Of a DNA stretch of 64,000 nucleotides, positions 1 to 33,483 are shown in pieces. Below the pieces are notes generated by a model that was not told where the DNA came from, made no database searches, and saw only the letters and a list, made by a program, of their open reading frames with translations. The position numbers were made by a program, and so were the translations under genes. Location: the IMG/VR virus record IMGVR_UViG_3300037418_000950. One strand, given 5' to 3'. The first letter of the stretch is position 1. Each line of letters begins with the position of its first letter. The stretch comes from a virus. Lineage: Duplodnaviria > Heunggongvirae > Uroviricota > Caudoviricetes.

Positions 1-13
1 TGTAAGAAAGACA

Positions 14-274
14 CTACCTATCGATCTTGCGCATTACAAAATTGTCTGACTTGGGAAAGTATTTGATCAAGTAAGTTAGGGCTACACCACCAGCTTCATT
101 GAAGACTGAAATGGTTTCCCACTTGGCTACTTCTTCCTTGGACAGAGCCCCCGCCCGATAGATGGCCTTGGCTTCGCCAAGTAGGACGCCGATGGTTTCG
201 CGTAGAGGACTTTCATGACTCATTAAGTCATGAAGGTAGTCCTTATAGCCTTCAATATCGATTGTTTTAGTCAT
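14..274 (-). CDS. hypothetical small protein
   Basis: 86 aa ORF co-oriented with and abutting the downstream GIY-YIG gene; no recognisable motif. Confidence 0.35.
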   Translation of the reverse strand: MTKTIDIEGYKDYLHDLMSHESPLRETIGVLLGEAKAIYRAGALSKEEVAKWETISVFNEAGGVALTYLIKYFPKSDNFVMRKIDR

Positions 275-870
275 GCACCATTGATCTTTCGGAGAACACT
301 TTGTCGTATTTTTTCTTTTTCAGCTTCGGTGCGAGGTTTACCTTTGTTCCAAGGAGTTTTGCCGCTATTAGCGGTGCCTATACGTTTTTTTGATTCTTCT
401 GAATGAGTTTTATTTTTGAACGTTCCATTGGGGAATTTTTTTCGCAAACTTGCTGTTCGCTTGGCACTTTGCTTCTTGTAAAATTCTTTTCCATCACTGG
501 AATTTTTCCATTTTTGGAAACCAGCTTTACGGGCGTCAATACCACGTTCATACATATACTTGGCTTTTTCTGGCGACATACCTAAACCAAGACGATTGAT
601 ATATCCAAAGCCACCCTTGCCACCTGGACATAGGTTGTAGGTATCTTCTGATATGACGACTAATTCTTTTTCTTTAGCATTCATTTCGTCTTCATTATCG
701 AAGATGTGTAGAATCTCTTTGTGAAAATTTTCTATACCGTATTTTTCAATTGCTCGTGTGATAAGAATACCTGAACCCATGTAGCCATCATTCAGGTCTT
801 CTGTTTGATGTTTACCGATATAGTATTTGAAATTGATTTTATTGGTAATACGATAGATAGTGTAGTACAA
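271..870 (-). CDS. GIY-YIG homing endonuclease
   Basis: N-terminal YTIYRITNKINFKYYIGKH...GSG motif (GIY-YIG) plus basic C-terminal NUMOD-like repeats (KKRIG..SGK, KGKPRTEAEKEK). Confidence 0.8.
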   Translation of the reverse strand: MYYTIYRITNKINFKYYIGKHQTEDLNDGYMGSGILITRAIEKYGIENFHKEILHIFDNEDEMNAKEKELVVISEDTYNLCPGGKGGFGYINRLGLGMSPEKAKYMYERGIDARKAGFQKWKNSSDGKEFYKKQSAKRTASLRKKFPNGTFKNKTHSEESKKRIGTANSGKTPWNKGKPRTEAEKEKIRQSVLRKINGA

Positions 871-935
871 TGATACTCTACAGTTGTTCTAATAGGTCTT
901 ACGATATGCCTATTTAGACAACTGTAGAGCTTATG

Positions 936-1017
936 CGGAGCCCAAAGGAATCGAACCCTCAACCTTTCGGTTGGCAATCGCTTTCAAGGCGATCTGTCCC
1001 CATGGACGCTGGACTCC
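936..1017 (-). tRNA. tRNA-Ser (anticodon TGA), class II with long variable arm
   Basis: Cloverleaf read by hand on minus strand: acceptor GGAGTCC/GGGCTCC, anticodon loop CTTGAAA, variable hairpin CCAACCGAAAGGTTG, T-arm GGGTTCGATTCC. Confidence 0.7.
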
Positions 1018-1025
1018 AGCTTTGT

Positions 1026-1226
1026 TTATTTAGATATGCCTAATGCAGCGTCTATCATTTCTTGCCAGATGGATTCAAAAGTTGTGCCGCGTTCTGTAGC
1101 AGCTTCGATCATATCAGGCGTTGGATCACGCATCGCTTCAAGAACTTTGCGGGCAATCCATATAGGTTCACCCACAAATCTTGTGTCATGAATGACTTGT
1201 TGAAGACGCGCTTTCATTGGTGTCAT
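1026..1226 (-). CDS. hypothetical protein
   Basis: 66 aa ORF, 4-nt overlap with the upstream DUF433-like gene. Confidence 0.4.
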   Translation of the reverse strand: MTPMKARLQQVIHDTRFVGEPIWIARKVLEAMRDPTPDMIEAATERGTTFESIWQEMIDAALGISK

Positions 1227-1453
1227 TTGTATGTTCCGTATCGACCGATGTATCCAGGGTGTTCTTTACAGTACGTGATGGATTCTTTAATCTGTGCGTC
1301 AGATATGTGCGGAAAACATTCCCTGACTTCTTCGATACCGTGGCGTTCATAGAGCTTGGCCACGTCGTAGGGTTCGACGCGCGTCCCTTTGATGGTCGGT
1401 CTACCACCACACAACCCTGGAATTTCAACGATCATTGATTTCATCCTGGCCAC
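1223..1453 (-). CDS. DUF433-like small protein
   Basis: 76 aa; IPGLCGGRPTIKGTRV motif typical of the DUF433 family often paired with toxin-like genes. Confidence 0.5.
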   Translation of the reverse strand: MARMKSMIVEIPGLCGGRPTIKGTRVEPYDVAKLYERHGIEEVRECFPHISDAQIKESITYCKEHPGYIGRYGTYK

Positions 1454-1641
1454 GGCACAGAGAAGGTGATGTTCCCTACGTCTCCACTGCGATGCATGAT
1501 ACCCAAGTATTCCGTGTGTCCCGAATCTTGGCTTGGTTGGATCGAGAGTGTAAATTGGCCAGCGTTAGTGATCCAGACGCGATGCTTTTTGCAGAGTTCG
1601 TTTAGGTCATTCATGAAAGCCAATGCTTGTTCGTCGGTCAT
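1441..1641 (-). CDS. hypothetical protein
   Basis: 66 aa ORF overlapping the neighbours by ATGA-type junctions (operon-like). Confidence 0.4.
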   Translation of the reverse strand: MTDEQALAFMNDLNELCKKHRVWITNAGQFTLSIQPSQDSGHTEYLGIMHRSGDVGNITFSVPWPG

Positions 1642-1826
1642 TTCGCGACCGCTATTTTCATAGCTTCTGTTTCGAAGTGTTCATAGTATTGGATAGCCGC
1701 CTCTAAGCGAGTCGTATTGACTCCCCCAGCCACCCCAGGTCCCCCAAGACCAGTGTTGTGAACCTTCATAAGGTCAAGCACGGCCCGTGCAGTCTCGATT
1801 AGTAGTCGTGATTCAGGTCCGTTCAT
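1638..1826 (-). CDS. hypothetical protein
   Basis: 62 aa ORF in a tight co-oriented array. Confidence 0.35.
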   Translation of the reverse strand: MNGPESRLLIETARAVLDLMKVHNTGLGGPGVAGGVNTTRLEAAIQYYEHFETEAMKIAVAK

Positions 1827-2011
1827 TTATTCACCTCTACAAGAAACCCATTACTGACTTTAAGATATCCAGTTTCGATAAGGTCTTCGATAATGGAGTG
1901 TTCGCGCACGGTCCATTCGCCATAATAATTGAGACCATCGAACAAATTGGCATATTGGACTAGTGACTGAACGGCATCCCCAGATACACTCATGCGAATG
2001 CTACTCCCCAA
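1823..2011 (-). CDS. hypothetical protein
   Basis: 62 aa ORF with TTG start; 4-nt overlap with the downstream ORF. Confidence 0.3.
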   Translation of the reverse strand: MGSSIRMSVSGDAVQSLVQYANLFDGLNYYGEWTVREHSIIEDLIETGYLKVSNGFLVEVNK

Positions 2012-2166
2012 CCCATTTTTCCAGGTAGTTTCACGCCTGCGAGGAACGCAATGCGGGCAATGTCCTTATAGAGAACCTTCGCGGCCTCGGGAGCCTCTAC
2101 GGCTTCCCACCAAGCTTCGAAATGTTCTTCGGCGGTTCGATTGTCTCTGACCCATTCAGGCATGAC

Positions 2167-2361
2167 TCAAAATCTTTCTCCACAATGCGGGCACACTGTT
2201 GCCAGCGGCGGTTTCTCGATGCCGTAGTCTTCAGGATCAACGTTGTATTTGGATTTGATGTAATTGTAGGGATGGTCGGGATCGTCGCCGTCAAGGGCGT
2301 AACGATTGACCATCATTTGGCCACGCTTGACCCAAACGGACATTTCAAGGTCTTTGGTCAT
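2167..2361 (-). CDS. hypothetical small zinc-ribbon protein
   Basis: 64 aa ending in CPHCGERF. An unlisted 57 aa ORF (start 2163, MPEWVRDNRTAEEHFEAWWEA...) follows in the same frame. Confidence 0.4.
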   Translation of the reverse strand: MTKDLEMSVWVKRGQMMVNRYALDGDDPDHPYNYIKSKYNVDPEDYGIEKPPLATVCPHCGERF

Positions 2362-2376
2362 TCAATATTTTTCCCG

Positions 2377-2451
2377 TGGTAGCTCCAGTGGGTTTCGATC
2401 CCACTTCGCCCGCTTGAAAGGCGGAAATTCTAGCCACTAAACTATGGAGCC
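2377..2451 (-). tRNA. tRNA-Glu (anticodon TTC)
   Basis: Acceptor GGCTCCA/TGGAGCT, discriminator A, encoded CCA; anticodon stem TCCGC/GCGGG with loop CTTTCAA; T-arm GTGGGATCGAAACCCAC. Confidence 0.7.
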
Positions 2452-2475
2452 ACTATTCCGAAATACGCGGCAGAT

Positions 2476-2504
2476 ATTATAGTATAGTTAAGCGATTTTT
2501 TCAA
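2476..2504 (-). promoter_or_regulatory. sigma70-like promoter upstream of tRNA-Glu
   Basis: Minus strand TTGAAA-N17-TATAAT, about 18 nt upstream of the tRNA 5' end. Confidence 0.5.
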
Positions 2505-2727
2505 GCTCTAAATTTTCAGCTTGACACGACTCAAAGACTATGATGTTCTGAAAGGTTATATACCAACCAAGTTTGAAGACCCATGTGCGACGGGCGAACA
2601 TGGCGAGGGCCAAATCCCCCTGTGCCCTCTGAAACGCATCGTGAATGCGCGATTCGAGAGTTGACGAATAAACAAGACTGTAGCGATCCAATTAACAAGG
2701 CACCCTCGATAGTAGTTGACACTGGAG

Positions 2728-3021
2728 CTATTTAGTAGGTTTCGTAATTAGGTTCGCCAGTCGTCCCCCAATCTTGCGATTCTTGGCAATGTCTTTGATG
2801 TGATCATACTTGCCGTCATTCAGGTCGGTCTCGATTTGAGCCAAGTTGACGACACCCAATTCTTCCAAAAACTGAAAAGCATTTTGCATTCCGTACAGGA
2901 TGCCCTCGATCTTGCCTGCCGAGTAACCCGACTTGCGGCCCTGGTCGTATTGCATCTTCCCGTACTTGGCGAATAAATAGCCAATGGCGGCGAAAATTGC
3001 CGCGAACCAATAATAATTCAT
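2728..3021 (-). CDS. small membrane protein (holin-like candidate)
   Basis: 97 aa; N-terminal hydrophobic segment YYWFAAIFAAIGYLF; divergent from a cell-wall hydrolase-like gene. Confidence 0.4.
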   Translation of the reverse strand: MNYYWFAAIFAAIGYLFAKYGKMQYDQGRKSGYSAGKIEGILYGMQNAFQFLEELGVVNLAQIETDLNDGKYDHIKDIAKNRKIGGRLANLITKPTK

Positions 3022-3043
3022 TAAACCCCCAAAGGATACTCAG

Positions 3044-3499
3044 TTGACATTGCCCTGGATTACCGAAGCTCAAAAACACTTAGGTATAAAAAAAGATGGA
3101 TTGGATGATATGACTATCGTGACGGACGCGAGTTATGACCCCGCGACGCAACCTTGGTCAGGATTGTTCATGGCCTTTGTCTTCGCACAGATCGGCACAG
3201 AGCCGCCGCCGAACTTCTTGGACCCCAAGGCATGGGTAGACTTCGGAACCGCCCTAGATGAACCTGCTATGGGCTCTATCATTGTCCTCGGCCCTGGGAC
3301 ACGGGACACCCCCCATGTTGGCATCTATCTCGGGGAAGATGCCAACTACTACTTTCTACTTGGTGGAAATCAGAATGACACAGTTTGTGTCACGCAAGCG
3401 CCAAAGGGGAAGGATGATGTATTCCGCTGGCCGCCCGACTTCGTGAATGCGCTGGTGAAAGGCAGAGTGAATACTACCATAGAAAAAGCAAAACTTTAA
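3044..3499 (+). CDS. TIGR02594-like/CHAP-like putative cell-wall hydrolase
   Basis: 151 aa, TTG start preceded by AAAGGA. HVGIYLGEDANYYFLLGGNQ block resembles the phage-associated TIGR02594 (NlpC/P60-CHAP-like) family. Confidence 0.5.
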   Translation: MTLPWITEAQKHLGIKKDGLDDMTIVTDASYDPATQPWSGLFMAFVFAQIGTEPPPNFLDPKAWVDFGTALDEPAMGSIIVLGPGTRDTPHVGIYLGEDANYYFLLGGNQNDTVCVTQAPKGKDDVFRWPPDFVNALVKGRVNTTIEKAKL

Positions 3500-3707
3500 G
3501 CAAGCGGTATTAACGGTCCCGAATCGAACGGGAGTTTGACAATCGAGTTGCCTGTCTTTCCATTAGACGAATCGTTTCACTTATGATTCGGGTAGCTTTC
3601 CCGTAAGTGACACCGCTTGCCGTTCCCTAACGATCATGCATAACCGTTTCGGTACTTTAAAATACTACCATAGACAAGGCTAAAGTGCAAGCCTAAAAAG
3701 GAAGGGC

Positions 3708-4175: not shown

Positions 4176-4387
4176 CGCCCCCGTTGCCCTACATGTTTCC
4201 CGTGGTCGTCATAGACATGATAGAACAACATTTGTTCCCCCGCGGTTTTCTCGGTCGCAACCTGCATAGCTTCTTCAAGGGTATCGTAATCGCCTTGAAG
4301 CCAATCGTCGCCGTCGAAGGTATCAACACCCACAAGCCTGAACTTGCCCGCGGGTGCCTTGCGTGAAAAGTCTACGTCAATGGCCAT
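4169..4387 (-). CDS. hypothetical protein
   Basis: 72 aa ORF, 7-nt overlap with the downstream gene. Confidence 0.4.
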   Translation of the reverse strand: MAIDVDFSRKAPAGKFRLVGVDTFDGDDWLQGDYDTLEEAMQVATEKTAGEQMLFYHVYDDHGKHVGQRGRW

Positions 4388-4546
4388 GCTTCACCTTCCT
4401 GTTTGTTACACGCCTAAGACTATACGCCTTAGGCGTTCCTTTTCGATAGACGGGTAGCACTGCCCGCCAAGTCAGCTTGCCGCTTCCCCAATCGCGTTTC
4501 TCATAGGCCCGATAGATTTTCATTGGCCGTCTTCGTAGACATTTCA

Positions 4547-4996
4547 TTAATCCTCCACGTGGAAAGATACATGGCCAGGGTGGTTGCCGTGCTCAATGAC
4601 ATAGTCAAGTCTGTCCAGGACTTCTGCCTTGGATATCTTACGATCATTCCAGGTATTATGGTAATAATTTGGGTTAGTGAGCCAATGAGTTGTCACCATT
4701 GGTAATTCAAAGAATTTTGCGAAGGCATTAAAGCCATTATAGCGGGTCGCCTCATTTTTACCATAATAGATATCTCCAAGATACCTATTTCCTGCATCCT
4801 GACGAAAATAGAATCCTTGTTCCACGAATGGCTTATAGACTCCTGCCCAACCTGCAAGACATCCTGCTGTCAAACAACTATATTCTTCGTTCTTGCCTTC
4901 AGGATTCAAATTTCTACCCCAGGAATACATATTGATCTTTTCTTCTGGGGCGTTTGCGAAGAAGTTCCGTAATTCTATCAGGCGTGCTTTATTCAT
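4547..4996 (-). CDS. hypothetical protein
   Basis: 149 aa ORF with a preceding AGGAGG-like RBS (caggagggaactgATG). Confidence 0.45.
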   Translation of the reverse strand: MNKARLIELRNFFANAPEEKINMYSWGRNLNPEGKNEEYSCLTAGCLAGWAGVYKPFVEQGFYFRQDAGNRYLGDIYYGKNEATRYNGFNAFAKFFELPMVTTHWLTNPNYYHNTWNDRKISKAEVLDRLDYVIEHGNHPGHVSFHVED

Positions 4997-5018
4997 CAGT
5001 TCCCTCCTGCTACGATTC

Positions 5019-5423
5019 CTAAGAGATATAAAAGAGAAGAATTAAGGCAGGCATACGTGATCGTCTTCGCCATGTGTCACCTATAGAATTTGCAGTTCGG
5101 AAACTCCTCGCGCAAAATGCGCTTGGCGTCATCCCGCGACTTGGCGTCAAAAAAGCGACGGATAGTCTCCTGTTCATTGGTCGCCCAATAGAGAGACCAG
5201 CCACGGCTTCGCAAGCCCCAATAGGCCCGCCGCTATCATAGCCGCCCGAATCCAGTTTCACCTTTTGCAGGTAGAACTTATGGGGATGTTCAGGAATTGC
5301 CTGAAAATCTTCATAGGCATAAGGCAGGTCGGCACGCCCAAGCGGCGCACCATACTTACCACTGAGTTTTTCCAGTTTAGGCATGTCAACCATCCGTTGT
5401 TTGATCGCGCCAGCACCACACAA
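5019..5423 (-). CDS. hypothetical protein (frame ambiguity in 3' part)
   Basis: 134 aa. Around 5100-5230 an alternative frame reads more protein-like (ATNEQETIRRFFDAKSRDDAKRILREEFPNCKFY), suggesting a frameshift or two small genes. Confidence 0.3.
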   Translation of the reverse strand: MCGAGAIKQRMVDMPKLEKLSGKYGAPLGRADLPYAYEDFQAIPEHPHKFYLQKVKLDSGGYDSGGPIGACEAVAGLSIGRPMNRRLSVAFLTPSRGMTPSAFCARSFRTANSIGDTWRRRSRMPALILLFYIS

Positions 5424-5622
5424 ATAGGTGCGCGAATGCTAGTATCCAAGGGCAATGAAGAAGTATCTCCATGTCAACCATCCTTCAACCAGAAGATATT
5501 GACGCCTAACCACAGATACCGAATCGGAACATACAGTTCTATCCAATGCTCAATGGCGGGGAAGGAGGGGATGATGGTCAATAAGACCATCACCACCAAA
5601 AGCTCCAATTTTACGTTGTGGC

Positions 5623-5832
5623 TCATGCAACATCCCCATTCACAAAGGCATTGTAAAGGGTGATGACGAGAAACGCGCCAGCGGCAATTGCGTGACCACC
5701 GTGACCTTCAAACGCCGTGAAGAACAAATAAAGTGTCTCACCAACGATATGACCGTAGTTGCCAATCACGTGAGAAAGTTTGGTCTTAAGTGTCTGAGTT
5801 TCGATTTCGTCCGTTTTGAAGAAGTCGAACAT
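5623..5832 (-). CDS. hypothetical small protein
   Basis: 69 aa, AGGAG RBS, located directly downstream of the promoter-like element at 5894-5922. Confidence 0.4.
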   Translation of the reverse strand: MFDFFKTDEIETQTLKTKLSHVIGNYGHIVGETLYLFFTAFEGHGGHAIAAGAFLVITLYNAFVNGDVA

Positions 5833-5893
5833 GTTGGGCTCCTGTTCGTGTTCGGGTGTTTGATTTCTTACTCAGTACGTCGTCGGTGAGAAA

Positions 5894-12737: not shown

Positions 12738-12813
12738 TGGTATCGATAGTTGGGATCGAACCAACCTTTGAGGGCTTATGAGACCCTTGCGACTACCCTG
12801 CCGCCCTACCGAC
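12738..12813 (-). tRNA. tRNA-Met (anticodon CAT; initiator/elongator/Ile-lysidine not distinguished)
   Basis: Acceptor GTCGGTA/TATCGAT, D-arm GCGG-CAGGGTAG-TCGC, anticodon arm AGGGT-CTCATAA-GCCCT, T-arm GTTGGTTCGATCCCAAC, discriminator A plus CCA. Confidence 0.7.
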
Positions 12814-22536: not shown

Positions 22537-22568
22537 ATTTTACAAATGTTTGCGAATAGATTGTTAAG

Positions 22569-22653
22569 CTCGAAGGGTAGGGCTCGAACCTACGACGGGA
22601 TTTCTCCTACGGATTAACAATCCGTTGCCTGCTACCAACTCGGCTACCTCCGA
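22569..22653 (-). tRNA. tRNA-Asn(GTT)-like with long variable arm, embedded in an extended stem
   Basis: Acceptor TCGGAGG/CCTTCGA, anticodon arm ACGGA-TTGTTAA-TCCGT, 16-nt variable region with GGA-GAAA-TCC hairpin, T-arm GTAGGTTCGAGCCCTAC. Flanks GATTGTTAAGC/GCTTAACAATC extend the acceptor helix to 18 bp. Confidence 0.45.
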
Positions 22654-22682
22654 GCTTAACAATCTGATTTGCGAAAGTATTT

Positions 22683-32654: not shown

Positions 32655-33070
32655 GACTCATCCTCTAAATCGCTATCACAAGCTTGGTTGGCGGCACGAC
32701 GACAAGCATCATTTTTCAGGAGCATCAGCCCACACTTGACGCAATAGCACCAATGCAGGAACCGTCCCGTGAACTTATGATGACTTCGTTTGAGTTGTTT
32801 TAGTTTATGTTTCTTAGAAATTGGATCACATTATAAATGATGATGATAATGAGATAGAGAGTGAATGCGGCGATGCCCGCGATGACCAGTTCGGCTGTGA
32901 GAGATGCCAACATTTGAAGGAAGATCGAGAGATAGAGGATCATTCACTTTCTCCTATCATTGATAAGAGAATGGCAAATGACAGAAGCATTTTATCGCCA
33001 GGAGACGGCGCGAAAAACGCGCCAATGCACAGAATCAATACTAAAAAATACATAATCTCCCCCGAGATTT

Positions 33071-33146
33071 TGGTGCGGATTGCGCGGAGTCGAACCCGCA
33101 ACTTCGGGATGGAAGCCCGATATTTTACCTTTGAAACTAAACCCGC
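33071..33146 (-). tRNA. tRNA-Gly (anticodon TCC)
   Basis: Acceptor GCGGGTT/AATCCGC plus A plus CCA, D-arm GTTT-CAAAGGTA-AAAT, anticodon arm TCGGG-CTTCCAT-CCCGA, T-loop TTCGACT; T-stem 3' side has a 1-nt irregularity. Confidence 0.6.
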
Positions 33147-33153
33147 ATATTGA

Positions 33154-33246
33154 TGGTAGGCGTCCAGGGAATTGAACCCTGCCGTGAACGGTAATCTGCC
33201 GCCAAGGGGTTATAAATCCCTCCCGCACGTACCAGTGCTGACGCCC
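33154..33246 (-). tRNA. 93-nt tRNA-like gene with two anticodon-like hairpins
   Basis: Acceptor GGGCGTC/GACGCCT, discriminator A plus CCA, perfect T-arm CAGGGTTCAATTCCCTG, D-arm GCAC-TGGTAC-GTGC. One hairpin (AGGG-TTTATAA-CCCT) gives anticodon TAT and a second (GGCGG-CAGATTA-CCGTT) gives GAT. Confidence 0.4.
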
Positions 33247-33464
33247 TAATCGTGAGTATTCGCGTATCGTTGGAGCATTTCCAGAAACGATTGATTATTT
33301 AGCGAACCGTTCCAGATATTCTGGCAAGTAAATTCAGCGGCGTCCTGGAATATTTTGATGATTGGACGATTAGGATACTTGCGCATTAAAACGTAAAGAA
33401 CGTCTCGAAATTCGGCAACCTGAGACATTTCACCTTCAGATAATTGACGCATATTATACCTCAT
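33246..33464 (-). CDS. hypothetical protein
   Basis: 72 aa ORF ending where the 93-nt tRNA-like gene begins. Confidence 0.35.
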   Translation of the reverse strand: MRYNMRQLSEGEMSQVAEFRDVLYVLMRKYPNRPIIKIFQDAAEFTCQNIWNGSLNNQSFLEMLQRYANTHD

Positions 33465-33483
33465 ACTTACTCAGAAGTCAATT

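Follow-up and report, generated by a model that had tools for sequence, protein, structure and literature searches.

The gene and its five helices

The window analysed here is a stretch of 64,000 nucleotides (nt) of DNA from a virus of the Caudoviricetes (IMG/VR record IMGVR_UViG_3300037418_000950), and our subject is an RNA gene of 93 nt on its minus strand (33246-33154), which comprises five helices, encodes its own CCA end and carries two hairpins resembling anticodon arms of isoleucine tRNAs. Read from 33246 to 33154, the gene begins with the 5′ strand of the acceptor stem (GGGCGTC, 33240-33246), which pairs with 33158-33164 to give 7 base pairs (bp) including G1·U72. A single A (33239) separates this strand from a reduced D arm (GCAC-TGGTAC-GTGC, 33225-33238) with a 4-bp stem and GG in the loop. 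After two G residues comes hairpin 1, the anticodon arm (33204-33222), with the stem strands GAGGG and CCCTT, the loop TTTATAA with TAT at 33212-33214, and an A·C mismatch at the loop-closing pair 31·39. It is followed directly by hairpin 2 (GGCGG-CAGATTA-CCGTT, 33187-33203), an extra arm of anticodon-arm-like shape with GAT at 33194-33196. A 5-nt linker (CACGG, 33182-33186), which has the length of a class I variable loop and reads CUNGA in most relatives, connects hairpin 2 to a canonical T arm (CAGGG-TTCAATT-CCCTG, 33165-33181; 5-bp stem and 7-nt loop), and the gene ends with the acceptor 3′ strand GACGCCT, the discriminator A73 (33157) and CCA (33154-33156), together spanning 33154-33164.

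The original prediction had named the acceptor stem, the discriminator A with CCA, the T arm, a short D arm and two hairpins with the loops TTTATAA and CAGATTA. All of these are borne out by the sequence, and both hairpins, each of 5 bp with a 7-nt loop, appear in the minimum-free-energy fold of the window RNA, which consists of exactly the five helices. An additional small hairpin, CCG-TTCA-CGG, had been placed before the T arm. This hairpin takes the 3′ strand of hairpin 2, so that the two are mutually exclusive, and it cannot form in most relatives (CTG TTCT CGA), whereas hairpin 2 shows compensatory changes in four of its five pairs; it was therefore abandoned.

With regard to tool detection, ARAGORN reported seven tRNAs in the window without the 93-nt gene among them, Rfam gave no match to the gene at gathering scores, and the Rfam tRNA model (RF00005) gave none even at E ≤ 10. 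RF00005 also missed the relatives in loci L034, L010, L053 and L058. The checks were nevertheless not wholly negative, since nine relatives were called tRNA-Ile(tat) by ARAGORN, with lengths of 91-94 nt, and one variant that keeps both arms (L117) passed the Rfam tRNA threshold at 43.6 bits. At permissive Rfam thresholds the best match to the window copy was tRNA-Sec (RF01852), at 24.3 bits. This identity was rejected as the score lies below the gathering score of 47, the anticodon is UAU and not UCA, and the branch is 7/5 and not 8/5. Our own covariance model of the family (R1) scores the window copy at 89.9 bits, this copy being part of the seed alignment.

A family of phage RNA genes

The first relative found (L001) adjoins a homologue of the SPFH-domain protein that neighbours the gene in the window. 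Further relatives were collected by pattern scans, each of which constrained different parts of the structure. Scanning with hairpin 1 and part of the hairpin 2 loop gave 44 viral loci, and scanning with hairpin 2 only, the hairpin 1 loop being free, gave 17 further ones. With hairpin 1 only and hairpin 2 free, at least 120 viral loci were obtained, and 63 of 95 new ones were members among the matches listed; a scan of metagenomes with hairpin 1 and the first three bases of hairpin 2 gave at least 120 loci, with 117 members among the matches listed. A genome scan found copies in contigs of three metagenome-assembled genomes (MAGs), one of them a Pyrinomonadaceae contig (L072). In total, at least 161 loci that differ in their core sequence belong to the family, on contigs of uncultured phages and from metagenomes. 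Among the cultured phages of INPHARED it was not detectable at blastn sensitivity with the window region, two members, the conserved core and a class I relative as queries, and near and distant DNA searches of cultured phages gave only generic matches to the T arm or to tRNA-Gly.

The family is sharply delimited. Its members score 55-112 bits with model R1 and all other tRNAs at most 39 bits, the next-best matches after the members including several tRNA-Leu(UAA). A strict descriptor of the architecture, run over both strands of 2.98 Mb of collected sequence, returned 118 sites, all of them family members, and hence no two-arm tRNA with another anticodon in that sequence, which fits a problem specific to the AUA box. 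One locus holds two identical copies of a divergent member (L042, 2585-2676 and 2851-2942, minus strand), 266 nt apart and with a tRNA-Lys(UUU) between them.

A fold under selection

The fold was assessed in two alignments that were found differently, alignment A with 36 distinct sequences and an independent set of 34 distinct sequences from the hairpin-1-only scan. In alignment A, 96.6% of the pair cells were paired, compared with 80.5% in shuffles and 39-53% when the partners were slid, and 17 pairs were compensatory; across both alignments, the values were 96.6-99.3% paired, about 80% in shuffles and 37-61% with partners slid by 1-3 columns. The five helices were 98-100% paired in the two alignments, with 16-19 compensatory pairs. 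The acceptor helix of alignment A was 100% paired, with compensatory changes in six of its seven pairs, in all four pairs of the D stem and in four of the five T-stem pairs. In the independent set all helices were 98.5-100% paired, and compensatory pairs made up 7/7 of the acceptor, 4/4 of the D stem, 4/5 of hairpin 2 and 4/5 of the T stem. RNAalifold independently returned the same five helices. These results clearly show compensatory base changes in all five helices and a fold that is under selection.

Several parts of this fold are those of a canonical tRNA, namely the 7-bp acceptor stem, the T arm with its 5-bp stem and 7-nt loop, and the discriminator followed by CCA, the acceptor and T helices being 99-100% paired. 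A73 is invariant in the family alignment, CCA is encoded in nearly all copies, and G2-C71 is nearly invariant (35/36). An 8/4 or 9/3 register of acceptor and T stems was rejected, as the eighth pair would be A×G or G×G and the 7/5 register is backed by covariation. We also rejected G1·U72 as an Ile-specific mark, since many other tRNAs in these clusters have it too (Leu, CAU and Ile tRNAs). In the relatives, the D stem has 4 bp (6 bp in L117) and the D loop 3-6 nt, mostly as a UGGN tetraloop or UAG. The tertiary core set U8, A14, R15 and G18-G19 is incomplete: only one purine lies between the acceptor and D stems and A14 and R15 are absent, while the D loop, which is UGGN, UAG or TGGTAC, has GG in many copies. 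The tRNA body has thus been remodelled beyond the cloverleaf, with five helices and a reduced D arm, and yet it is under strong selection. The linkers at the junction measure 1, 2, 0-1, 5 and 0 nt, so that it can be taken for a class II tRNA whose 3′ linker is long or for a class I tRNA (5-nt variable loop) with a hairpin inserted at position 26.

Hairpin 1 and the probable reading of AUA

Among the sense codons, AUA alone requires a dedicated enzyme in bacteria, TilS. UAU is the best anticodon for reading it, yet UAU is rejected by the synthetase and misreads AUG. Hairpin 1 displays this anticodon in a 7-nt loop that reads Y-U-UAU-A-N (with Y32, U33 and A37) in every copy, including 17 of 17 loci from the scan in which this loop was free. 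Position 38 is mostly A, so that most copies have the U36-A37-A38 required for N6-threonylcarbamoyladenosine (t6A). As judged from these bases, the loop has the signature of an AUA-decoding loop. The stem covaries (GAGGG/CCCTT, GAGGC/GCCTT, GAGGA/TCCTT and GAAGG/CCTTT), the pair 29-39 occurring as GC, CG or AU. The same anticodon arm (GAGGG-C CUUAUAA G-CCCUU) is found in an ordinary class I tRNA-Ile(UAU) of 72 nt, in locus L106, which scores 68.7 bits with Rfam.

The bacterial Ile identity set consists of A73, C4-G69, U12-A23, C29-G41, G34 or lysidine (L34), A35, U36, t6A37 and A38 (PMC9976931). Hairpin 1 has A35, U36, A37 and mostly A38 of this set, but it carries U34 and G29-C41. Outside the two hairpins, position 4-69 is C-G in 21 of the 36 sequences, A-U in 13 and G-C in two, and the third pair of the D stem is mostly G-C, where the identity set has C4-G69 and U12-A23.

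Hairpin 2 and its conserved loop

The hairpin 2 loop was counted only in sets that left it unconstrained, which gave 122 distinct variants (51 viral and 71 metagenomic) among the matches listed. It reads Y-N-GAU-N-N in 115 of these 122 variants and has GAC in the other seven. Position 1 is a pyrimidine in both sets. Position 2 is mostly A (viral: A 46, C 4, U 1; metagenomic: A 55, G 8, C 6, U 2), positions 3 and 4 are G and A in all 51 viral and all 71 metagenomic variants, position 5 is U in all 51 viral variants and U (64) or C (7) in the metagenomic ones, and positions 6-7 are variable in both sets. The stem occurs in at least 14 different sequences with an invariant middle C-G, equivalent to pair 29-41. 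The loop bears A, C or G in place of U33 in 119/122 variants (A in 101/122), and A37 is likewise missing in 119/122.

Hairpin 2 is therefore unlikely to decode, since U33 is missing and position 37 is usually not capable of carrying t6A, and the two hairpins are not the equivalent alternatives that they had originally been taken for. Bifunctional decoding, in which two folds would alternate UAU and GAU at the decoding position and one gene would serve all three Ile codons, has the Ile anticodons on both loops in its favour, as well as a roughly symmetric junction, with 2 nt before hairpin 1 and, after hairpin 2, 5 nt, as many as in a class I variable loop; in model alignments that skip hairpin 1, hairpin 2 is matched to the anticodon arm of class I tRNA-Ile(GAU) or CAU tRNAs. 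The near-complete loss of U33 and A37 makes it highly improbable, however, and so do the GAC variants, which would read Val codons, and the normal tRNA-Ile(GAU) that most of these phages already encode.

With respect to the Ile identity set, hairpin 2 offers G34, A35 and U36 (115/122), mostly A38 and the equivalent of C29-G41, its position 37 being G, U or C. Neither arm alone carries the full Ile set for the anticodon arm.

The GAC variants form a sub-group (loci L181, L196, L214, L265, L275, L279 and L169, and also L200) with the loops CGGACGG or TGGACGA. C at loop position 5 occurs only together with G at position 2 (7/7 GAC variants), which suggests that these two positions interact or are read together. 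When checked by eye, the loops of the two hairpins were not consistently complementary to each other, nor was that of hairpin 2 (AGAU/GGAC) to the D loop, T loop or 5-nt linker, and no change in a loop, the D loop, the T loop or the linker was seen to track the switch from GAU to GAC. A descent of hairpin 2 from the anticodon arm of phage tRNA-Ile(GAU) was considered and rejected, the resemblance being confined to the L065 copy.

The conservation of this loop also bears on the idea that hairpin 2 is an intervening sequence excised after transcription. Without the 17 nt of this hairpin, what remains would be exactly a class I tRNA-Ile(UAU) whose variable loop has 5-6 nt. Such loop conservation is not expected of a spacer, however; the RNA has neither a bulge-helix-bulge motif nor the features of group I or II introns, and to our knowledge no bacterial or phage enzyme excises a hairpin of this kind. 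We give this explanation hardly any credence.

tRNA clusters and the meaning of AUA

Members of the family lie almost always inside phage tRNA clusters, which comprise 28 tRNAs in L008, 26 in L036, 24 in L065 and 21 in L020. A normal tRNA-Ile(GAU) and CAU tRNAs are encoded there as well, and ARAGORN found no other tRNA with a UAU anticodon in these clusters. The usual neighbours are Arg(UCU), Leu(UAA) and a CAU tRNA, a classic rare-codon set. At several loci, an unusual T loop with A54 (AUCGUAA and similar) is found both in the family member and in the tRNA-Ile(GAU) encoded at that locus.

The meaning of AUA was assessed by aligning homologous open reading frames (ORFs) between loci and counting the residue opposite each codon; the pairs are not independent of each other. 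ATA (21,787 aligned pairs) stood opposite Ile in 50%, Val in 16% and Leu in 16% of cases, and ATT and ATC opposite Ile in 61-62%, Val in 14-16% and Leu in 11%. Leu codons stood opposite Leu in 62-72% and Val codons opposite Val in about 57%. In the small sample from the GAC-clade loci (n=45), ATA was opposite Ile in 56% and Val in 11%. As these substitution profiles are Ile-like, AUA is read from the alignments as isoleucine in these phages, and its reassignment to Leu, Ser or Val was rejected.

This argues against a tRNA that inserts Leu, Ser or Val, for which there is precedent in the nev-tRNAs of nematodes, among them a UAU species, nev-tRNA-Ile(UAU). Under such an explanation, leucyl- or seryl-tRNA synthetase (LeuRS, SerRS), or the valyl enzyme (ValRS) in the GAC clade, would charge the RNA through its long arm, and AUA would be translated partly as Leu, Ser or Val. 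The long variable arm together with A73, which is the Leu discriminator, would suit it, and so would the nearly invariant G2-C71, the tRNA-Leu(UAA) among the next-best matches of the family model and the GAC variants; the allo-tRNAs are a further precedent (Mukai et al. 2017, PMC5389517). On the other side, the ATA sites are Ile-like, those of the GAC-clade loci included, the D arm differs from the Leu/Ser/Tyr type, the 7-nt loop is conserved, unlike variable arms, which SerRS reads through the backbone, and the discriminator is A and not the G73 or U73 of Ser-type allo-tRNAs. We therefore regard such missense charging as improbable.

Taken together, the family is a real and widely conserved phage tRNA gene for the rare Ile codon AUA. 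It is best filed as a tRNA variant, a class-II-like, 7/5, five-helix tRNA-Ile(UAU) with a mimic of an anticodon arm. The two options left by the original prediction, a class-II-like tRNA with an unusual extra arm or a non-tRNA structured RNA using tRNA ends, can accordingly be ranked: the former is supported by the nine ARAGORN calls, the signature of the UAU loop and the setting in tRNA clusters, and the latter is the less likely. The ordinary Leu/Ser/Tyr class II cloverleaf that might have emerged instead did not, the anticodon being that of Ile and the D arm not being of the class II type. In a full-text literature search we found no description of a tRNA with two anticodon-like arms or of a class-II-like tRNA-Ile from phages.

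Comparison with known RNAs

The class II tRNAs for Leu, Ser and Tyr share with the family a five-helix topology in which the extra helix lies between the anticodon and T arms. They have a 3-bp D stem with a long loop, however, whereas the family has a D arm of 4 bp with a 3-6-nt loop and the anticodon UAU, and its extra arm is distinguished by 5 bp, a 7-nt loop of conserved sequence (17 nt in total) and the 5-nt 3′ linker. The codon evidence in the phages concerned also favours Ile over Leu, which sets the family apart from class II tRNAs and nev-tRNAs alike.

Mimics of anticodon arms that are bound by synthetases outside tRNA are known from the Escherichia coli thrS operator and the tRNA-like structures of plant viruses (brome mosaic virus), and poliovirus provides an example as well. 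The thrS and plant-virus mimics sit in mRNAs or viral genomes, whereas the mimic in this family would sit within a tRNA that has a different anticodon of its own.

Phage T4 also encodes an AUA decoder among its few rare-codon tRNAs, and the tRNA-like stable RNAs rnaC and rnaD lie in the same cluster. The T4 tRNA-Ile is of class I, however, with the anticodon CAT, and hence needs the TilS of the host. The 3′ part of T4 rnaC (species 1 RNA; L288 1907-2001, minus strand) reaches 22 bits with the family model, which does not exceed the scores of ordinary T4 tRNAs. It aligns weakly as a tRNA-like domain in which two internal hairpins accompany the acceptor stem and T arm.

The tRNA-Ile(UAU) of Mycoplasma mobile (PMC3575796) and that of L106 resemble the family in the use of UAU to read AUA without lysidine and in A73. 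The tRNAs of this type are class I tRNAs of 74-77 nt, however, to which the family adds the GAU-bearing arm, and in M. mobile it is the isoleucyl-tRNA synthetase (IleRS) that is altered.

The closest RNAs described are the allo-tRNA(UAU) and other irregular tRNAs of soil and sediment bacteria (Mukai et al. 2017, PMC5389517). The likeness consists in a tRNA-Sec-like Rfam score, a long extra arm and a five-stem junction, and the allo-tRNAs occur in metagenomes beside other irregular tRNAs; the family too has a member in an acidobacterial (Pyrinomonadaceae) MAG contig (L072). Of the allo-tRNA traits, the family has the long arm and frequent D tetraloops, but its D stem is only 4 bp (6 in L117) and its discriminator A73. 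Allo-tRNAs have by definition an 8/4 or 9/3 acceptor/T branch, mostly bear G73 or U73 (Ser identity) and are linked to toxin-antitoxin loci and transposons, whereas the family is 7/5, bears A73 and is found in phage tRNA clusters. In the text consulted, a conserved GAU loop on the extra arm is not reported for allo-tRNAs; the comparison was made with their published description.

A probable tRNA-Ile(UAU) with an extra arm

The reading we favour, and consider rather probable, is that the gene specifies a functional phage tRNA-Ile which reads AUA with the UAU of hairpin 1, independently of TilS, and bears an extra arm resembling the anticodon arm of the major tRNA-Ile(GAU). The RNA would be co-transcribed with the neighbouring tRNA-Gly from a sigma-70-like promoter and trimmed at its tRNA-like ends, CCA being already encoded; expression and processing are presumed here. 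Isoleucine would then be charged onto the RNA, which we think likely, and AUA decoding would be supplied without a TilS-modified tRNA, making the phage independent of both the minor tRNA-Ile2 and the TilS of its host.

How such a tRNA might be charged is a more tentative matter. IleRS requires G34 or lysidine at this position and rejects U34. The enzyme from E. coli has a kcat/Km that is 360-fold lower for UAU than for LAU, and M. mobile, which is without TilS, can use tRNA-Ile(UAU) through a changed IleRS (Arg865) (PMC3575796). In the family, the extra arm may act as a recognition handle, its likeliest partner being the anticodon-binding region of IleRS, a proposal that we put forward with reserve and base on the U34 of hairpin 1 and on the G34, A35, U36, frequent A38 and C-G at 29-41 that hairpin 2 supplies. 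Hairpin 2 would offer G34-A35-U36-A38 and C29-G41 to IleRS, and the UAU arm would be offered to the ribosome. A tRNA of such split reading, in which the ribosome reads UAU and IleRS reads GAU on an arm made unfit for decoding by the loss of U33 and A37, is possible but rather doubtful. If it were true, the roughly 360-fold discrimination of ordinary bacterial IleRS against U34 would be bypassed, and this would be the first natural tRNA with synthetase identity and codon reading on separate anticodon-like arms. If the extra arm is a synthetase handle, identity would be split from decoding, which is an aim of the designers of orthogonal tRNAs, and the RNA would provide a natural scaffold for the reassignment of AUA.

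Several observations weigh against a handle for IleRS. GAC, which is an anticodon for Val, stands in the loop of seven distinct variants; the extra arm has G, U or C at position 37, so that the t6A37 determinant is missing; C29-G41 is not present in all of the phages' own tRNA-Ile(GAU); a class I phage tRNA-Ile(UAU) without the extra arm exists (L106); and the handle presumes that the extra arm reaches the anticodon site of the enzyme. Other points tell against a functional tRNA more generally. ARAGORN and the Rfam tRNA model miss the window copy and most members, the pair closing the hairpin 1 loop (31-39) is mismatched in 29 of 36 sequences, U8 and A14/R15 are absent, some T loops are non-canonical (AGCGUAA, GGCAGCA) and some D loops are without GG. 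With these unusual loops and missing core bases, the elbow may not be built as in a normal tRNA. In addition, irregular allo-tRNAs with UAU, which are related, showed no activity in translation in E. coli (PMC5389517).

Some of the same features would suit an RNA that is idle in translation, such as a decoy or sponge for a defence enzyme targeting tRNA, a regulator, or a stable RNA like T4 rnaC and rnaD, processed by the tRNA machinery and acting through its two conserved loops. It escapes the standard tRNA finders, its core is without U8, A14 and R15 and in some members without the bases that pair D loop and T loop, and both loops are conserved beyond the needs of a variable arm. The T4 tRNA cluster encodes tRNA-like stable RNAs of no known function, and the inactive five-stem-junction allo-tRNA(UAU) was suggested to be non-translational (PMC5389517). 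Hairpin 1 nevertheless retains all features of a decoding loop and shares its arm with an ordinary tRNA-Ile(UAU) (L106), A73-CCA is retained, and the gene is the sole UAU-anticodon tRNA in otherwise nearly complete phage tRNA sets. All of this renders a role outside translation unlikely. We also know of no defence system that targets the anticodon loops of tRNA-Ile.

Read as a TilS-independent AUA decoder, the family would be a widespread third solution to AUA in phages, beside lysidine and changed synthetases. Most copies go unseen by standard tRNA finders, so that AUA decoders are undercounted in phage tRNA inventories, and the family model can be used to annotate them.

Genomic surroundings and other RNA genes

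In the window, a tRNA-Gly(UCC) (33071-33146, minus strand; found by ARAGORN, 51 bits with the Rfam tRNA model) lies 7 nt downstream of the 93-nt gene. The two genes had been described as back-to-back; they do adjoin, but they stand in tandem on the same strand and not on opposite strands, and they are probably on one transcript. A consensus scan found a sigma-70-like promoter, TTGACT-17 nt-TATAAT (33453-33481, minus strand; 11/12 matches), a candidate by consensus match alone, upstream of both tRNA genes and of a small ORF of up to 72 amino acids (33246-33464, minus strand), whose TAG stop codon shares its G with the start of the RNA gene. Small ORFs are interspersed among the tRNA genes in relatives as well. 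Downstream of tRNA-Gly the same type of scan gave a weak terminator-like hairpin with a T run (33018-33031, minus strand). The window phage is a distant T4-like phage, whose DNA polymerase, of family B, shares about 40% identity with gp43 of cyanomyoviruses, and the window also encodes a primase, a helicase and a ribonucleotide reductase; a DNA search found no near relative of the window among cultured phages. A conserved neighbouring protein as partner of the RNA was rejected, since, apart from an artefact, the largest cluster of neighbours covers 35 of 161 loci and is an HExxH protein without a link to tRNA.

Two other tRNA genes of the window are unusual. A tRNA-Asn(GUU) of 86 nt (22568-22653, minus strand) is class-II-like, with a D arm of the Ser/Leu type (GCCGAGTTGGTAGCAGGC) and a variable stem of 3 bp that is capped by a GAAA loop. 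It has G73, CCA is not encoded, and its flanks (about 22557-22664; GATTGTTAAGC ... GCTTAACAATC) lengthen the acceptor stem by 11 bp. A conserved type of tRNA with the anticodon CAU is present in the window (12738-12813, minus strand) and in L008 (8019-8094), L036 (4754-4830) and L053 (8-84); its D region reads TGGGAGGT.TTGGC.ATCTC or GGGCGGCAGGGTAGTCGC, and the window copy has G1·U72 and A73.

T loops with A54 (ATCGTTA/ATCGTAA) occur in the tRNA-Ile(GAU) of L008 (5045-5119), L009 (9830-9904), L011 (2660-2734), L015 (2134-2208) and L036 (9227-9301). The family members of L008, L009 and L015 have an A54 T loop and those of L011 and L036 the canonical TTCAAAT; the Leu and CAU tRNAs of the A54 clusters keep TTCGA, and G1·U72 and A73 are widespread there. 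A tRNA-Ile(GAU)-like gene in L065 (5781-5856, minus strand), missed by ARAGORN and found by the family model at 39 bits, has C33 (CCGAUAA), the T loop AGCGUAA and a D loop without GG.

Many tRNAs of 82-90 nt in the clusters combine a class II D arm with a short GNRA-like variable arm and anticodons for Thr, Lys, Cys, Trp, Met or Glu (L008 9398-9484; L021 923-1008; L065 1667-1753, 2651-2736 and 2744-2833; L012 396-477; L016 9818-9901; L026 5347-5431; L058 11178-11261; L072 2630-2712). They keep cognate marks such as U73 in Cys and G1-C72/C2-G71 in Thr. There are also tRNA-Leu(UAA/CAA/UAG) with only 74-77 nt, which lack the long variable arm by which tRNA-Leu is defined in bacteria (L001 1175-1250; L009 6532-6607; L019 3177-3253; L020 6378-6454; L052 2063-2139; L053 1187-1263; L072 2760-2833 and 3049-3122). 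Horizontally acquired tRNA clusters of mycobacteria match what the phage clusters show in having a rare tRNA-Ile(TAT), described without an extra arm, and tRNA-Leu with a short variable loop (PMC6582537).

Genes resembling transfer-messenger RNA (tmRNA), permuted and of the alphaproteobacterial type by Rfam, with tags ending in ...ALAA, adjoin phage tRNA clusters (L006 3900-4275; L009 11238-11611; L034 4193-4589; L060 3836-4182; L066 3621-3983), and a full-length ROOL RNA (RF03087, 350.7 bits) lies within the tRNA cluster of L106 (8451-9079, minus strand). ARAGORN further reported a CTA tRNA ('Pyl') in L038 (3063-3141, minus strand), on a phage contig of 417 kb, and a TCA tRNA of 70 nt ('SeC') in L009 (6825-6894, plus strand), which are possible stop-codon suppressors. 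Finally, the Pyrinomonadaceae MAG contig L072 has an array of at least 25 tRNA genes, including the family member, at 1-3500, and beside it, at 4245-5890, ORFs resembling QueE (radical SAM) and QueC (SGGLDS motif); this contig may be a phage or mobile element that was binned with the genome.

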